Source: Candidatus Microgenomates bacterium
Lineage (GTDB): Bacteria > Patescibacteriota > Microgenomatia > Daviesbacterales > UBA10151
Assembly (NCBI GenBank): GCA_016182045.1
Contig: JACOYE010000011.1
Coordinates: 39 to 64,038, forward strand
DNA: 64,000 bases
Direction of reading: 5' to 3'
Position numbers and translations under genes: made by a program. This document shows positions 452 to 29,818 of the stretch, piece after piece. The notes under the pieces were generated by a model. It saw nothing but the letters and a program-made list of their open reading frames with translations. It was not told the origin of the DNA and did no database searches. Numbering within the stretch: position 1 is the first letter of the stretch; the number at the start of each line of letters is the position of its first letter.

Positions 452-2077
452 ATGGCTAAAATATTGAAATTTGATTCAGAGGCACGCGAGAAACTTTTGA
501 AGGGTGTAAATACCCTGACTGAGGCTGTGGCGACCACTTTGGGGCCTAAGGGCAGGAATGTGGCCTTAGATAAAAAATGGGGCGCACCTAATGTGGTGCA
601 TGATGGAGTCACAGTTGCCAAAGAAATTGATTTAGAGGATCCATTTGAAAATATGGGAGCCCAACTTATCAAAGAGGCAGCCTCCAAAACTAATGATGTG
701 GCAGGAGATGGTACCACCACCGCCACCATTTTGGCCCAAGCCATGGTTTCAGAAGGGTTAAAAAATATCCAGGCCGGTTCAAACCCGATGATTTTAAAGC
801 ATGGCATGGAGAAGGCAATTCTATCTTTGGTGGAAGAGCTTAAGAAAATGAGCAAAAAGATCTCCACCACAGAGGAAATTGCTCAAGTGGCCACCATTGC
901 TGCATCAGATGTAACGATCGGTAATTTAATTGCTGAATCTTTGCAAAAGGTAGGCAAAGACGGAGTGGTGACTGTTGAGGAAGGTAAAACCACTGAAATG
1001 AGCGTTGATTATAAAGAAGGAATGGAATTTGATAAGGGTTTTGTTTCCCCATATTTTGTGACTGATGCTGATAAAATGGAATCCTCTATTGAAGATGCCT
1101 ATATCTTAATAACTGATAAAAAGATCTCCTCAGCTTCTGATTTAGTGCCATTTTTGGAAAAAATTGTGGCTGTGTCTAAAAATCTGGTGTTACTAGCTGA
1201 TGAGGTGGAAGGTGAGGCATTGGCATTACTAGTGGTTAATAAATTAAGAGGAACCATCAATGTCTTGGCAGTTAAAGCTCCTGGATTTGGGGATAGAAGA
1301 AAAGAGATGCTGGAGGATATTGCCATTTTAACTGGTGGACAAGTGATCTCTGAGGATACCGGGGTCAAGTTTGAATCAGTGGAAGTGGAAATGTTAGGAA
1401 AAGCAGGCAGGGTAACTTCTGATAAAGATAATACCTTAATTGTGGATGGAAAAGGTAGCAAAGCCAAGATTGAGGCAAGAATTGGCCAAATTCGCAGGGA
1501 GCTTGAGACTACAGATTCTGAATTTGACAAGGAAAAGTTACAAGAAAGACTGGCCAAATTAACCGGTGGAGTGGCTGTTGTTAATGTGGGAGCAGCCACA
1601 GAAATAGAGTTAAAAGAGAAAAAAGAAAGGGTGATTGATGCAGTGGCTGCCACAAAAGCTGCCATAGATGAGGGAATTGTGGCAGGTGGGGAAGTGGCTC
1701 TTTTAAGAGCTGCCAAAGTTTTGGATACCTTATCTTTAGACGGTGAGGAGAAAATTGGGGTAAAGATTGTTGGGAAGGCTTTAGAACAACCGTTTAGACA
1801 ACTGGTCAAAAATGCAGGGATGGATGATGGGATAGCCTTGTCTAAGGTGATGGGGACTAATGGTAATATGGGAATTGATGCTTTGGATGGGGAAGTTAAA
1901 GATCTGGTTAAAGCTGGAATTATTGATCCTGTAAAAGTGACCAGATCTGCTTTACAAAATGCTGCATCTGTGGCTATCATGATTATGACTACCCATGTTT
2001 TGATAAGCGATAAACCAGAACCCCCTCCGCCAGCTGGCGGACCCCCAATGCCTCCAGGCGGAATGGGAGAATATTGA
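452..2077 (+). CDS. groEL: Chaperonin GroEL (60 kDa)
   Basis: 541 aa with the canonical [22 protein letters not shown] and GGM-like [12 protein letters not shown]-terminal tail. Co-located with groES. Confidence 0.95.
2026..2041. repeat. 16-bp perfect palindrome tccgccagctggcgga, copy 1 (inside the groEL 3-prime end, encodes PPAGG)
   Basis: Identical 16-mer recurs at 29656-29671 inside tpiA. It is GC-rich in an AT-rich background. Confidence 0.7.
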
Positions 2078-2117
2078 GTATGGCAACTGAAAGAGACACT
2101 TTTCCAACAGAGAGCCA

Positions 2118-2420
2118 GTGCAAGTTAGACTAGAAGAGTGGCTTGCCCCTTTTTCCAGGATAAAAACCCTTGAAGATTTGCAACCAGGTGAAACTCCTGA
2201 CGTACTTTTAGTTGCAGATACTTTTTATCTTGAAGGTATTGGACATGGTAGGATTCAGATTGCTAAGTTAGATGTTAGTGAAGGAAGTCTTTTATTAGAT
2301 TTATCAGGCGATGAGCCAGTTCTTAATCCCATGGTAAGGCAGTTCGGACGAATAGATGTTTTATTTAAGGATTTAGATAAAACAATGCTGACTAAACTTA
2401 AGTCTCTAATTTTATGGTAA
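2118..2420 (+). CDS. Hypothetical protein (GTG start), function unknown
   Basis: 100-aa ORF directly downstream of groEL. No family recognised by eye. Confidence 0.3.
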   Translation: MQVRLEEWLAPFSRIKTLEDLQPGETPDVLLVADTFYLEGIGHGRIQIAKLDVSEGSLLLDLSGDEPVLNPMVRQFGRIDVLFKDLDKTMLTKLKSLILW

Positions 2421-2423
2421 AAT

Positions 2424-2678
2424 ATGTTTATTATGCAAACTATTCCTTGGCAAAAAATTAAAGCTTTAGAAGATGAAATAAAGGTTTTAAAAAACCTAGG
2501 TAAAAAGCAGGTTAAAAAGACTACTAAGAAAGATAGTCTTAAAGGTATATTAAAGGCTAAACCCAGTAGTATTGAAGGTATTCTAAAAGGAGTTAATGTT
2601 AGCTGGAAGGATTTTCAAGAGGTAAAACAAATGTGGCTTGATGAAGATCACATACTGCACCAGAAGCACAAAAAGTGA
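2424..2678 (+). CDS. Small lysine-rich protein, putative antitoxin-like partner of the downstream PIN remnant
   Basis: 84-aa ORF. Its stop overlaps by 4 nt (GTGA) the start of a PIN-domain remnant, the classic TA arrangement. The C-terminal GILKGVNVSWKDFQEVKQMW resembles VapB-type antitoxin tails. This is inference. Confidence 0.35.
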   Translation: MFIMQTIPWQKIKALEDEIKVLKNLGKKQVKKTTKKDSLKGILKAKPSSIEGILKGVNVSWKDFQEVKQMWLDEDHILHQKHKK

Positions 2679-2770
2679 ATATTTTATTAGATACAAATGC
2701 TCTCTTCTGGTATTTAGAAGATTCTCCTGTATTAAGTAAGGATGATCAAACTTATAATCAAAACAAATAA
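2675..2770 (+). pseudogene. Truncated PIN-domain (VapC-like) toxin remnant, only ~31 codons
   Basis: Translation from GTG is VNILLDTNALFWYLEDSPVLSKDDQTYNQNK*. This matches the N-terminus of the (M)xILLDTHALLWFL...P.LS VapC subfamily and then stops. Compare the intact PIN protein at 55057-55497, which starts MYLLDSNILIY. Confidence 0.5.
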
Positions 2771-28539: not shown

Positions 28540-28559
28540 TTTTCCCCTAGACAATTTTT
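28540..28559 (+). repeat. Direct repeat DR-B copy 2
   Basis: Identical to 27634-27653. It lies immediately upstream of trxA. Confidence 0.8.
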
Positions 28560-28585
28560 TAAACTATTGTTATTATCTAAATCTT

Positions 28586-28846
28586 ATGGCAGTTAAACTT
28601 TTGGATTTTTGGGCTCCTTGGTGTGGACCCTGCCATGTTATGACTCCTGTTTTGGAAGAGATTAAAAAAGAAATGGGAGATAAGGTGGAAATTGAGGAAA
28701 TTAATGTAGATGAAAAACCTGAGGAAGCTTCTAAATTTGGAGTCATGAGTATTCCTACCTATATTATATTAAGGGATAATAAAGAGGTTGGAAGGAAAAT
28801 TGGGGTTACCCCAAAAGCAGAGCTAATAAAACTTCTACAAAGTTGA
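28586..28846 (+). CDS. trxA: Thioredoxin
   Basis: WAPWCGPC active site, 86 aa. Confidence 0.9.
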   Translation: MAVKLLDFWAPWCGPCHVMTPVLEEIKKEMGDKVEIEEINVDEKPEEASKFGVMSIPTYIILRDNKEVGRKIGVTPKAELIKLLQS

Positions 28847-29142
28847 ATTTCAAGGAGAAAGTCATCAATATTGTTAAGAAAATACCATATGGTCGAGTAA
28901 CCACCTACGGTACCGTGGCAATTTTGGCTGGTGTCCCTCGTGGGGCAAGATTGGTGGGTGGGGTTTTACACTTTAATATTGAGGCTGCACCATGGCATAG
29001 AGTTATTAACCGACATGGATTTATTTCTACCAAATGTTTGGAGCATCCTAAAGCTTTACAAAAGATACTTTTGGAACAGGAGGGAATTGAGGTAACTGAC
29101 GATTTCATGATAGACTTACAAAAGTATGGATGGTGGGGATAA
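28843..29142 (+). CDS. Alkyltransferase-like (ATL) protein: MGMT/Ogt DNA-binding domain with PWHRV instead of PCHRV
   Basis: VPRGARLVGGVLHFNIEAAPWHRVINRHGFIS. Trp replaces the acceptor Cys, as in ATL proteins (Atl1/YbaZ). Translationally coupled to trxA. Confidence 0.7.
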   Translation: MNFKEKVINIVKKIPYGRVTTYGTVAILAGVPRGARLVGGVLHFNIEAAPWHRVINRHGFISTKCLEHPKALQKILLEQEGIEVTDDFMIDLQKYGWWG

Positions 29143-29818
29143 AAACATCTGGCTTATTGCTAACTGGAAATCTAATAAAACCATAGCTGAGGCTTTAGAC
29201 TGGGTTTCTAAAGTTGGACCAAAAGTCCCCAAAAGAGATGATCTAAAAGTGGTGGTTTGTCCAACTTTCAGTTGTCTTTCTGAAGTTAAAAAGGCGGTTC
29301 AAGTGGGTAACTTCCCCATCATGGTTGGATCACAGGATCTGTCTCCGTTTGAGGTGGGTGCATACACTGGTGAGGAAGCGGCATCTTTATTGAAAGGTCT
29401 TGTGTTAATATCCATCCTAGGTCATTCTGAAAGAAGACAAAATTTTTCTGAGAGTGATGAGATGGTCGCTAAAAAGGTTGAACAGGCGCTCCAAAATGGG
29501 ATCATTCCTTTAGTTTGTGTCCAGGGTCCTGATACCCCTGTACCGGATGGTTGTAAGTTAGTAGCTTATGAACCTGTCTTTGCCATAGGTACAGGGAATC
29601 CTGATATTCCAGAAAATGCCAATAATGTAGCAAAAGTTTTGAAAGAAAAACACGGTCCGCCAGCTGGCGGATTGGAAGTTTTATATGGAGGAAGTGTCAC
29701 TTCTGAAAATATTAAAAATTTTATAAATATGCCCAACCTTTGTGGTTCTTTAATAGGTAATGCCTCATTAGATGCTGAGGAGTTTATCAAGATAGTTGGG
29801 GAGTGTTCAAAACTGTGA
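29126..29818 (+). CDS. tpiA: Triosephosphate isomerase
   Basis: IANWKSN, GHSERR and AYEPVFAIGTG motifs. It contains the in-frame 16-bp palindrome encoding PPAGG. Confidence 0.85.
   Translation: MDGGDKNIWLIANWKSNKTIAEALDWVSKVGPKVPKRDDLKVVVCPTFSCLSEVKKAVQVGNFPIMVGSQDLSPFEVGAYTGEEAASLLKGLVLISILGHSERRQNFSESDEMVAKKVEQALQNGIIPLVCVQGPDTPVPDGCKLVAYEPVFAIGTGNPDIPENANNVAKVLKEKHGPPAGGLEVLYGGSVTSENIKNFINMPNLCGSLIGNASLDAEEFIKIVGECSKL
29656..29671. repeat. 16-bp perfect palindrome tccgccagctggcgga, copy 2 (inside tpiA)
   Basis: Identical to 2026-2041 in groEL. Confidence 0.7.

Follow-up and report, generated by a model that had tools for sequence, protein, structure and literature searches.

The window studied here, meaning the whole 64,000-nt stretch of DNA analysed, from a Candidatus Microgenomates (Daviesbacteria-like) contig, raises the question of how one and the same 16-nt palindrome came to lie inside unrelated genes. 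The first-pass annotation had placed it in both groEL and tpiA, encoding PPAGG in each, and we found both copies to be exact (Table 1). It had further judged a chance identity to be very unlikely; in agreement with this, the window contains three matches at up to three mismatches vs. 0.04 expected from dinucleotide-preserving shuffles, with 0/100 shuffles reaching three. Chance or a codon-usage coincidence was ruled out by these shuffles together with the identical DNA found in orthologues whose synonymous sites are saturated, as described below.

Copies in the window and their hairpin structure

The copies in groEL, tpiA and dnaJ are all intragenic and share one frame, in which a T as third codon base is followed by CCG CCA GCT GGC GGA; that of TIM has the peptide context KHGPPAGGLEV, and 23 nt (GGTCCGYCAGCTGRCGGATTGGA) are common to the tpiA and dnaJ copies. 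In the dnaJ copy, positions 5 and 12 have changed from C-G to T-A, a mirror-image exchange by which the base pair is kept.

Table 1. Copies of the 16-mer and related hairpins in the window, with strand of the host gene
Sequence	Positions	Location	Class	Features
TCCGCCAGCTGGCGGA	2026-2041	groEL (452-2077 +), disordered C-terminal tail	canonical copy, exact match	encodes PPAGG
TCCGTCAGCTGACGGA	46201-46216	dnaJ-like gene (45623-46600 +)	variant copy	encodes PSADG
TCCGCCAGCTGGCGGA	29656-29671	tpiA (29126-29818 +)	canonical copy, exact match	PPAGG = residues 178-182
TCCGCCTTTGGCGGA	10520-10534	intergenic	family member	same arms, 3-nt loop; flanks ATGA…TCAT lengthen stem
TCCCGCACCAtcTGGTGCGGGA	32374-32395	purple-acid-phosphatase/dockerin-like gene (31678-32679 -)	longer relative	9-10 bp stem
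TCCACCCCAAGGGTGGA	36660-36676	lepA (36059-37870 +)	family member	TCC…GGA foot shared; pair 4/13 = A-T

The family members at 10520, 32374 and 36660 were absent from the first-pass list. The first adjoins another palindromic element, which itself forms the C-terminus of a TatD gene, and no T-run terminator was called there. The second is preceded by CAA in the sense of the phosphatase gene and is an insertion of 18 nt when compared with L007, L005 and L002, while L003 has TCCACCAGCTGGCGGA (NPPAGGP) at the same site. The third lies within an insertion-rich stretch of lepA that is missing in L005, L003 and L002; TCCACC…GGTGGA hairpins are recurrent in the lepA genes of L001, L002, L005, L133 and L135. 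More generally, a search of the window for GC-rich hairpins whose stem is 7 bp or longer gave 17 hits (~10 distinct) vs. 0.8 in triplet shuffles, and across 252 kb such GC-rich hairpins were ~4-fold over shuffles, the commonest arms being TCCGCC, TCCGGC and TCCACC. The window also has unique palindromes (GCCACCAtgaTGGTGGC and GGGACGTtcgACGTCCC). An Rfam search of the window matched no family, by which a known RNA family was discarded as the identity of the 16-mer, and no tRNA genes were found in it.

The consensus, (Y)AA-TCCGCC-AGCT-GGCGGA, describes a 6-bp stem (up to 8-10 bp with flanks), a loop of 4 nt (3-5 nt among copies) and a one-sided tag, in a unit of 16-19 nt with a predicted hairpin energy of -11 to -13 kcal/mol. 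In a set of 21 distinct variants, pairing was kept in 96% of stem cells, and double changes had occurred at three of the six stem pairs (7 cells vs. 0.9 in shuffles, with 0/500 shuffles having as many); the single changes were concentrated in the loop. The outer 6-bp arms thus co-vary, and the least conserved part is the central AGCT/CAGCTG, for which we observed AACT, GGCT, ACCT, AACC, AAAT, TTCC and TTT. The CAGCTG core is therefore not the conserved feature, since the variants keep the 6-bp stem and the loop varies freely. G4-C13 is seldom replaced by A-T, though such a change would leave both the PPAGG reading and the base pairing intact. Selection for the PPAGG peptide was rejected as an explanation, as pair-preserving variants alter the peptide (PSADG, PAPAG) and copies exist in other frames and in non-coding DNA.

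Occupied and empty sites in orthologues

The first-pass annotation had proposed to check whether the PPAGG segment is missing from orthologous proteins, and it is indeed absent from most TIMs and, as a four-residue insert, from most DnaJs. In TIM the segment occurred in 10 of 117 orthologues and adds three residues relative to most (G-x-D becoming G-PPAGG); in the AlphaFold model of TIM the insert falls in the loop that follows helix 162-176 and leads into strand 184-189. In DnaJ it occurred in 13/120, as a 4-aa insertion vs. 107/120 orthologues (MRFG-D-LD becoming MRFG-PPAG-G-LD), the insert states comprising PPAGG, PSAGG, PSADG and decayed forms; PSAGG was seen at the protein level and would imply a T.G wobble. 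The GroEL search used a C-terminal fragment as its query and yielded proteins that were mostly partial, so that its tail comparison is weaker than those of TIM and DnaJ: the closest GroEL relatives were without PPAGG, and a few distant GroELs had (N/K)PPAGGP at the same tail position. At the DNA level, the exact 16-mer was also present in the dnaJ gene of L133 and in the groEL tail of L136, with gCCGCCAGCTGGTGGA in the groEL tail of L137, a copy in the dnaK tail of L087, and decayed copies in L134, L135 and the AAA gene of L132.

The tpiA genes of L007 and L009 have the same 16-mer as the window (16/16 nt) and that of L011 a compensated variant; where the tpiA genes of the window, L007 and L009 encode the same residue, they agree at the third codon position in only ~50% of cases. 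The same held for the carriers fetched as DNA, which mostly had an identical or near-identical 16-mer in genes whose synonymous sites were otherwise saturated. Carriers were dispersed over the NJ trees, the nearest neighbour being also a carrier for 0/13 of the DnaJ carriers; because these protein trees are star-like, the scatter is no proof of independent gains. Recurrence at exactly the same codon in many lineages would need either a strong target preference, an ancient origin with many precise losses, or lateral replacement.

Comparison of filled and empty sites in tpiA, dnaJ and sbcD showed what looks like replacement of 4-7 nt by the 16-mer, a net change of +9 or +12 nt and thus of +3 or +4 residues, which is predicted by no known transposition chemistry. 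No target-site duplication of the 16-mer was found at tpiA, dnaJ, sbcD, the AAA gene or the phosphatase gene, and the empty sites of TIM (G-Q-D), DnaJ (G-D) and SbcD (P-D-S) have no arm that could have been copied. In sbcD, a canonical copy was present in L011, with none in L007 (87% nt identity) or the window, which speaks for a recent gain. The Daviesbacteria genome behind L011 and L132 carries one three-change variant, TCCGGCACCTGCCGGA, in its tpiA as well as its sbcD gene, and accounts for 6/7 of the copies with TCCGGC arms seen in 252 kb. With regard to the gene-conversion hot spot put forward in the first-pass annotation, the presence of TCCGGCACCTGCCGGA in two genes of one genome suggests copy-to-copy transfer within a genome. 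Pfam searches of 30 window ORFs gave no transposase, RAYT or nuclease candidates, and an all-against-all clustering of ORFs near the metagenome copies (among the matches listed) gave no recurrent neighbour gene family.

Dispersal across low-GC metagenome contigs

A scan of metagenomes identified at least 120 stretches with the 16-mer. Among the matches listed, 77/120 were in contigs of <45% GC, and for a composition-matched control palindrome 84/91 matches were in contigs of ≥55% GC. Members of the family are thus spread over the AT-rich genomes of Microgenomates, which belong to the candidate phyla radiation (CPR), and over further metagenome contigs of low GC content; the earlier suggestion of a further palindromic element family was upheld by these metagenome copies, the hairpin excess and the variants with co-varying arms. 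Hosts among the matches listed include TopA, TsaD, MurB, CysS, RecG, SMC, SecA and the DnaK tail. Copies occurred in all three frames, between genes and also nested inside other palindromic repeats; of the 99 low-GC copies listed, 45 were inside clear long ORFs, and the contexts were PPAGG (25), RQLA (12), SASWR (8) and short or non-coding (54). Of the 97 copies listed, 70 had an A on exactly one side and 10 had it on both, against expectations of 48 and 21. GTAG occurred within 8 nt of 3/97 copies listed and CGTC of 2/97, and 78/101 copies listed had no longer palindrome or TIR extension of the 16-mer. An intrinsic terminator was considered and set aside, as a T-run accompanied only 8/97 copies listed and none was called at 10520. 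There was no orientation bias relative to transcription (18 sense vs. 12 antisense). The window has 3-6 family members in 64 kb and one Daviesbacteria genome ~7-8 in ~38 kb, from which the per-genome copy number is extrapolated at ~1 per 7-40 kb.

Origin of the hairpins

We think it probable that this family is a REP-like, copy-spreading hairpin mini-element that selection has filtered to tolerant protein loops. It behaves like a repeat of the REP or Rickettsia palindromic element (RPE) type: new copies arise in DNA irrespective of gene or frame, and those that persist lie between genes or in surface loops and tails of proteins that tolerate them, namely stability-face loops of the TIM barrel, the Gly-rich DnaJ loop and chaperone tails, with PPAGG the best tolerated frame. 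What is retained is the hairpin itself, by compensatory changes in the stem and free ones in the loop, and its structure may be what the copying process recognises; single-stranded DNA would be the more likely substrate because copies are equal in both orientations relative to transcription. For a duplication-free replacement of 4-7 nt, a templated patch, a gene-conversion-like event or capture at a break would fit better than cut-and-paste. Going further, we raise as a tentative proposal, which we would not yet favour, that this is an undescribed class of ultra-short (16-19 nt) hairpins repeatedly entering the same loops of tpiA, dnaJ and groEL across CPR by replacement-type, duplication-free insertion (either patch conversion with a hairpin as template, or a break capturing a hairpin oligonucleotide), with a mechanism and enzyme distinct from REP/RAYT, MITE and IS.

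Several known systems invite comparison. GC clusters of yeast and other fungal mitochondria are short GC-rich palindromes in a very AT-rich genome, optional between strains, sometimes in frame (var1) and spreading in a conversion-like manner; our hairpins resemble them in being short, GC-rich and palindromic in an AT-rich genome, optional and at times in-frame coding, but GC clusters are organellar, 30-60 bp long and flanked by dinucleotide duplications, and there is no sequence kinship. MITEs measure 70-300 bp, end in inverted repeats of 15-30 bp and have a target-site duplication, unlike the 16-nt unit here, which replaces 4-7 nt with no duplication at tpiA, dnaJ or sbcD. The mobility of REPs (repetitive extragenic palindromes) is attributed to RAYT tyrosine (HUH) transposases. 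Their unit is 20-40 bp, with a stem of 5-13 bp and a loop of 2-20 bp, and some are intragenic, often in replication and repair genes (PMC3733652). The likeness lies in a short GC-rich stem-loop (of 16-19 nt, slightly under the REP unit), an unpaired tag on one side only, families common to several species with species-specific variants, and hosts that include TopA, RecG, SMC and SbcD, cf. the replication and repair genes of intragenic REPs; REPs number tens of copies per genome, a figure to which our per-genome number compares as an extrapolation. The differences are a tag of A/AA/YAA rather than GTAG or CGTC, about half of copies inside long ORFs whereas REPs are mostly extragenic and downstream of ORFs, the absence of head-to-head dimers, no RAYT among the 30 window ORFs, and a CPR host, in which REPs are not described in the literature searched. 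That literature gave no description of such repeats in CPR, and neither the motif string nor the related GTCATTGCGAG repeat was found in a relevant context. The RPEs of Rickettsia (Ogata et al. 2000, 2002; summary in PMC10969869) are palindromes in frame in housekeeping genes, read as selfish DNA. According to such summaries they share with our hairpins in-frame positions in unrelated functional housekeeping genes, a small AT-rich genome and compatibility with the protein fold; they differ in size (~100-150 bp and 30-50 residues vs. 16-19 nt and 3-4 residues), our hairpins being some ten times shorter, and in having Rickettsia-specific families, and the RPE summaries in PMC10969869 and PMC3733652 report no same-codon recurrence across lineages.

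An alternative, in our judgement unlikely, is that the hairpin is a host-selected cis-element in mRNA or DNA for a conserved CPR factor, held by purifying selection rather than by self-propagation; it might serve as a site of binding, processing or pausing, or as a landmark for the nucleoid, replication or repair. It would account for the exactness of the 16-mer across lineages with saturated synonymous sites, the compensatory changes maintaining the stem, the rarity of A-T at G4-C13, and the recurrence at the same sites in the chaperone genes groEL, dnaJ and the dnaK tail of L087. However, ~90% of orthologues have no copy at each site, copies lie in unrelated genes, every frame, intergenic DNA and other palindromic repeats, some (L134, L135 and the L132 AAA gene) have decayed, and stem variants are specific to genomes; nor is there a transcription-orientation bias, an Rfam family or more than the occasional T-run (8/97 copies listed), and an insertion origin would be required even so.

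CPR bacteria presumably rely on DNA uptake, and the hairpin could in principle be an uptake signal of the kind found in Neisseria and Pasteurellaceae, which biased uptake followed by recombination would let accumulate, tolerant coding frames included. The HIP1 word of cyanobacteria and the uptake sequences of Neisseria and Haemophilus are words of 8-12 bp, ~1 per kb, recognised as sequence, and like our 16-mer they are short exact words over-represented in coding DNA, in preferred frames and common to related species. We nevertheless regard an uptake signal as very improbable. One short motif common to related lineages, found in permissive protein segments, preferred frames and both orientations, with PilN/PilO genes near, in the window's syntenic region, is what an uptake signal would give, but its density (1 per 7-40 kb) is 10-40 times lower, base pairing is conserved, the mirror-image compensation and free loop fit pairing rather than a double-stranded recognition word, and one genome has a different stem variant.

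Equally doubtful is local template switching, in which Pro/Gly-rich coding (CCN CCN … GGN GGN) would yield palindromes by fold-back or quasi-palindrome correction, their likeness being a convergence of codon usage. The sites are indeed Pro/Gly-rich loops and tails, the window has many unique palindromes (GCCACCAtgaTGGTGGC, GGGACGTtcgACGTCCC), and quasi-palindrome correction gives mirror-image changes naturally. This reading is nonetheless largely refuted by the exact recurrence of the 16-mer, with at least 120 identical copies across unrelated genes, frames and intergenic DNA; moreover the empty TIM, DnaJ and SbcD sites have no arm as template, and the one-sided A tag is left unexplained. Scarcely credible is a recognition site that coding DNA would tolerate, whether for the restriction-modification enzyme of the first-pass suggestion (PvuII-like CAGCTG) or for a dimeric DNA-binding protein. 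In its favour, the consensus is a perfect dyad including the loop and holds CAGCTG/AGCT; against it, this centre is the most variable part, co-variation of the 6-bp arms is not required by a dimer reading half-sites, and the methyltransferase or endonuclease sought was not found in the window ORFs scanned.

Whichever way the REP-like hairpins spread, reduced CPR genomes carry active-looking GC-rich hairpin repeat families inside essential genes, a source of protein indels and spurious peptides, capable of distorting alignments, phylogenies, gene calls and contamination checks. At ~16 nt this is the smallest unit still behaving as a propagating repeat, and with its same-codon nucleotide identity despite synonymous saturation it offers a tractable case for how REP-like hairpins move, bearing on the question of hairpin-directed conversion in bacteria. 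If an enzyme is tied to the family, it would have a compact, hairpin-specific DNA-insertion activity; if the reading of duplication-free insertion is true, the family would keep supplying CPR proteins with small in-frame indels.

The 3' end of dnaJ, where a related motif had been reported at 46558, does have cccgcctggcgggg, starting at 46561; it is another optional palindromic insertion, in 19/120 orthologues. A second family in dnaJ is found in two lineages at the same site but in opposite orientations, each time flanked by a CAYGG direct repeat.

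A palindrome recurring in groEL, tpiA and dnaJ

A search of the window for the 16-mer (the GC-rich perfect palindrome TCCGCCAGCTGGCGGA) at up to three mismatches identified three matches against 0.04 expected from shuffles, all in one common reading frame (table); the recurrence picked out in the first-pass annotation is thus real and more than chance. The dnaJ copy has two changes, at the mirror positions 5 and 12, which turn a C-G pair into T-A, and 23 nt including flanks are common to the tpiA and dnaJ copies. The window has a GC content of 38%, and GC-rich hairpins whose stems reach 7 bp or more give 17 hits in it (~10 distinct), where triplet shuffles give 0.8. 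Its TIM (the tpiA product) and DnaJ proteins match those of a Candidatus Microgenomates bacterium at 100% identity, and its nearest named relatives are Daviesbacteria. The cumulative GC skew rises monotonically over 1-64000, so that the window is without a replication origin or terminus, and no tRNA genes or Rfam families were found in its 64 kb.

Palindromic repeats and selected genes of the window, with counterparts in comparison loci (L-numbers) and viral contigs
Feature	Position or locus	Gene or contig	Remarks
Canonical 16-mer TCCGCCAGCTGGCGGA	2026-2041	groEL (452-2077)	exact match, encodes PPAGG
Canonical 16-mer TCCGCCAGCTGGCGGA	29656-29671	tpiA (29126-29818)	exact match, encodes PPAGG
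Variant 16-mer TCCGTCAGCTGACGGA	46201-46216	zinc-finger-less dnaJ-type gene (45623-46600)	<=3 mismatches, encodes PSADG
GGCCCGCTTCGCCCGCGAAGCGAGGCGAGCC (second family)	46426-46470	dnaJ	11-residue insertion
GGCCCGCTTCGCCCGCGAAGCGAGGCGAGCC-type	L134 (2887-3888)	dnaJ, same site	reversed, peptide GSPRSAGGAG
CCCGCCTGGCGGGG	46561-46574	dnaJ 3' end
GSPRSTRLATKRTRVEAG	19630-19670	peptidase M24 gene (18529-19770)	51-nt GC-rich palindromic insertion
CGCTTCGC…GCGAAGCG / GAGGCGAG	31796-31842, 60549-60582
GCTCGCTTCGCGAAGCGAGC	21795-21814	FemAB gene (21080-22132)	20-bp perfect palindrome, hypervariable stretch
GTCATTGCGAG…CTCGCAATGAC	L007 (3180-4253)	same place as GCTCGCTTCGCGAAGCGAGC	large palindrome, encodes SVIASEAKQSSHEIASSPIAPRNDT
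ATCCTGAGCGA…TCGAAGGAT (third family)	40837-40855	ORF 40496-41239
ATCCTGAGCGA…TCGAAGGAT	10535-10560	TatD C-terminus
ATCCTGAGCGA…TCGAAGGAT	L011:7192-7235, L132:3885-3928
GGGACGTtcgACGTCCC	36627-36643	lepA	in 39-nt insertion
TCCGCCACGTGGCGGA x4	L290, L308, L331	IMGVR_UViG_3300051212_000228
TCCGCCACGTGGCGGA x3	L302, L329, L332	IMGVR_UViG_3300042477_000093
AbiEii-type toxin nucleotidyltransferase	27874-28539		among housekeeping genes
NYN-domain protein	44985-45527		immediately upstream of dnaJ
PIN-domain protein	55057-55497		among housekeeping genes

Comparison with orthologues indicates that the PPAGG segment is an optional insertion. Most of the best 117 TIM orthologues share the state K-Y/H-G-x-D-LEVLYGGS, and 10 carry GPPAGG, DPPAGG, SPPAGG, GPPAGR or GPAPAG, a gain of three residues; on a neighbour-joining tree with indel columns excluded these carriers occupy at least six separate places, and their nearest neighbours are mostly without the insert. 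Among 120 DnaJ orthologues, 107 read MRFG-D-LDIVF and 13 have four extra residues (GPPAGG, GPSAGG, GPSADG, GPSTDG, GSSADG and others); in no case is the nearest neighbour of one of these carriers another carrier. The first-pass annotation had treated PPAGG as inserted in both TIM and GroEL, which agrees with its absence from most TIMs; in GroEL the segment is missing from the closest tails, while (N/K)PPAGGP stands at the same tail position in several 65%-identical proteins. In an AlphaFold model (pLDDT 85.5) the TIM PPAGG forms residues 178-182, in the loop that joins helix 162-176 to strand 184-189; in TIM barrels this is the side of the barrel facing away from the catalytic loops.

What recurs is the DNA, not the peptide. 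The exact 16-mer is present in tpiA of four comparison loci (L007, L008, L009 and L010) which, with the window gene, share only 64-72% nucleotide identity among themselves, third codon positions at identical residues being only ~50% identical, and it is also found in L133 dnaJ and L136 groEL. The L132 dnaJ and L137 groEL copies are TCCGCCGGCTGGCGGA and gCCGCCAGCTGGTGGA, respectively, and decaying copies are found in dnaJ of L134 and L135. In the L011 tpiA copy, TCCGGCACCTGCCGGA, pair 5/12 is G-C where the canonical copy has C-G, and position 8 of the loop differs too, giving the peptide PAPAG.

Hairpin conservation and dispersal

An unbiased scan of ~0.93 Mb of fetched loci, at up to three mismatches, gave variants in which five of eight single changes fall at positions 7-10, double changes are both central or else form complementary mirror-image pairs (5/12 twice, 1/16 once), and triple changes include 2/15 and 5/12, each together with a loop change. 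A covariation test on 21 distinct variants, with a 6-bp stem and a 4-nt loop, found 96% of stem cells paired and three stem pairs with both partners altered (7 cells, where shuffles give 0.9 and none of 500 was as high), a count slightly biased towards structure since 2 or 3 of the 21 were pattern-guided picks; the unbiased subset has the same pairing pattern, and the signal was gone when the pairing partners of the 21 variants were slid. The hairpin is predicted at -11 to -13 kcal/mol, and these sequence comparisons indicate that it is the conserved feature. We discarded the earlier idea of a restriction site with a CAGCTG core, because no part of the 16-mer is less conserved than its central AGCT/CAGCTG.

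A metagenome-contig scan identified the exact 16-mer in at least 120 stretches, across unrelated genes, reading frames and non-coding DNA, which bears out the first-pass suggestion of a palindromic element family, and this family is widely dispersed. Among the matches listed, 77 come from contigs below 45% GC and only 17 from contigs at or above 55%, whereas for a composition-matched control palindrome, TCCGCCACGTGGCGGA, 84 of 91 matches in viral contigs fall in those with 55% GC or more; the low-GC habitat of the 16-mer is thus not predicted by composition. Host genes among the matches listed include topA (twice), tsaD, murB, cysS, recG, smc and secA, and two copies stand in one dnaK tail; within clear long ORFs, listed copies read PPAGG (25), RQLA(D/E) (12) or SASWR (8), and 54 have a short or non-coding context. 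Some copies cap longer hairpins or are nested in other palindromic repeats, e.g., GTCATTGCGAGGA[16-mer]GACGTGGCAATC. Of the 97 copies listed, 70 have an A before the arm on one side alone (48 expected) and 10 have it before both arms (21 expected), the commonest flanking triplets being CAA and TAA; the repeat unit is thus asymmetric, like a tagged REP (repetitive extragenic palindrome). REP-type tags are absent, GTAG standing within 8 nt in only 3 and CGTC in only 2 of these 97 copies, and tag orientation showed no bias relative to the coding strand (18 to 12 among copies listed).

The control palindrome has the same arms and an ACGT loop. It was itself found several times over in each of a few ~50% GC viral contigs (table), and phage-like DNA may thus carry a sister family.

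Signs of gain and copying, and likeness to known repeats

Presence and absence in the repair gene sbcD, together with common variants, are signs of recent gain and of copying within a genome. In L011, sbcD contains the canonical 16-mer (AAGCC[TCCGCCAGCTGGCGGA]CCT) at a site that is without one in L007 (AAGCC[CGACTCA]CCT) and in the window, and a second sbcD site has a 12-nt insert in L011 and L007, the window being without it, with stems that differ by a compensated 4/13 change. In the Daviesbacteria genome to which L011 and L132 belong, TCCGGCACCTGCCGGA, a variant with three changes, occurs in tpiA and again in sbcD. GC-rich hairpins number 72 in 252 kb of related loci, against 15-20 in shuffles, with TCCGCC (7), TCCGGC (6) and TCCACC (4) as commonest arms; 6 of 7 TCCGGC-arm hairpins belong to the L011/L132 genome. 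L007 and L011 are 87% identical in sbcD and only 72% in tpiA, an uneven divergence that could come from recombination between lineages.

Maintenance of the hairpin is thus found together with insertion polymorphism, spread over genes, frames and lineages, a one-sided tag and genome-specific variants. We consider the family to be probably a propagating REP-like hairpin repeat; its main rival, a structural signal selected by the host, seems to us unlikely. In a propagating repeat of this kind the hairpin would be the recognised substrate of a copying process, and selection would afterwards filter the copies to tolerant protein segments. Between filled and empty sites 4-7 nt are replaced by the 16-mer (net +9 or +12 nt), and no target duplication was found at those compared (tpiA, dnaJ, sbcD), a pattern more in keeping with templated patching or capture than with transposition by cut-and-paste; gene conversion is a candidate mechanism. 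The tpiA and dnaJ empty sites have GG…GATTTGGA in common, the other sites being without it, a likeness that hints at target similarity. No candidate enzyme gene was identified among 30 ORFs of the window, and no gene recurs beside the metagenome copies listed.

The literature searched mentions neither the motif nor such repeats in the candidate phyla radiation. The closest system in architecture is that of the REPs, stem-loops with a tag, of which some lie within genes and several in repair genes (PMC3733652); the closest in behaviour are the Rickettsia palindromic elements (RPEs), which are in-frame insertions into housekeeping genes (PMC10969869). The 16-mer family, however, is without the defining REP tag and the REP extragenic bias, and does not have the size of an RPE or a MITE.

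Other palindromic insertions

Several further genes of the window have palindromic insertions. The GSPRSTRLATKRTRVEAG insertion is missing from four M24 orthologues, and the same codon in L002 carries a related insertion of 27 nt (GSPRFGGEAG). One copy of the CGCTTCGC…GCGAAGCG / GAGGCGAG family is a 48-nt insertion in a phosphatase/dockerin-like gene, and the other encodes SPRFAGGAG in an Arg/Gly-rich PNPase tail. The peptide type encoded by the L007 palindrome at the FemAB site is found in many metagenome 'hypothetical proteins'. The lepA insertion is missing from all seven orthologues compared. The third family encodes HPER…VEGS / ILRLHSG peptides and has varied small hairpins at its tip, the two copies in one Daviesbacteria genome having 43 nt in common, including the TCCGGCTTCCGCCGGA tip; this suggests that hairpins nest inside other palindromic repeats.

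In dnaJ, the second-family insertion is present in 7 of 120 DnaJ orthologues; a CA(C/T)GG direct repeat flanks both the window and L134 copies, with a compensated switch of T-A to C-G in the stem of the latter. The palindrome at the dnaJ 3' end lies within an optional insertion of 6-7 residues (SPPGGEA type), found in 19 of 120 orthologues. Of the eight ways in which the three dnaJ insertions could be present or absent together, seven were seen.
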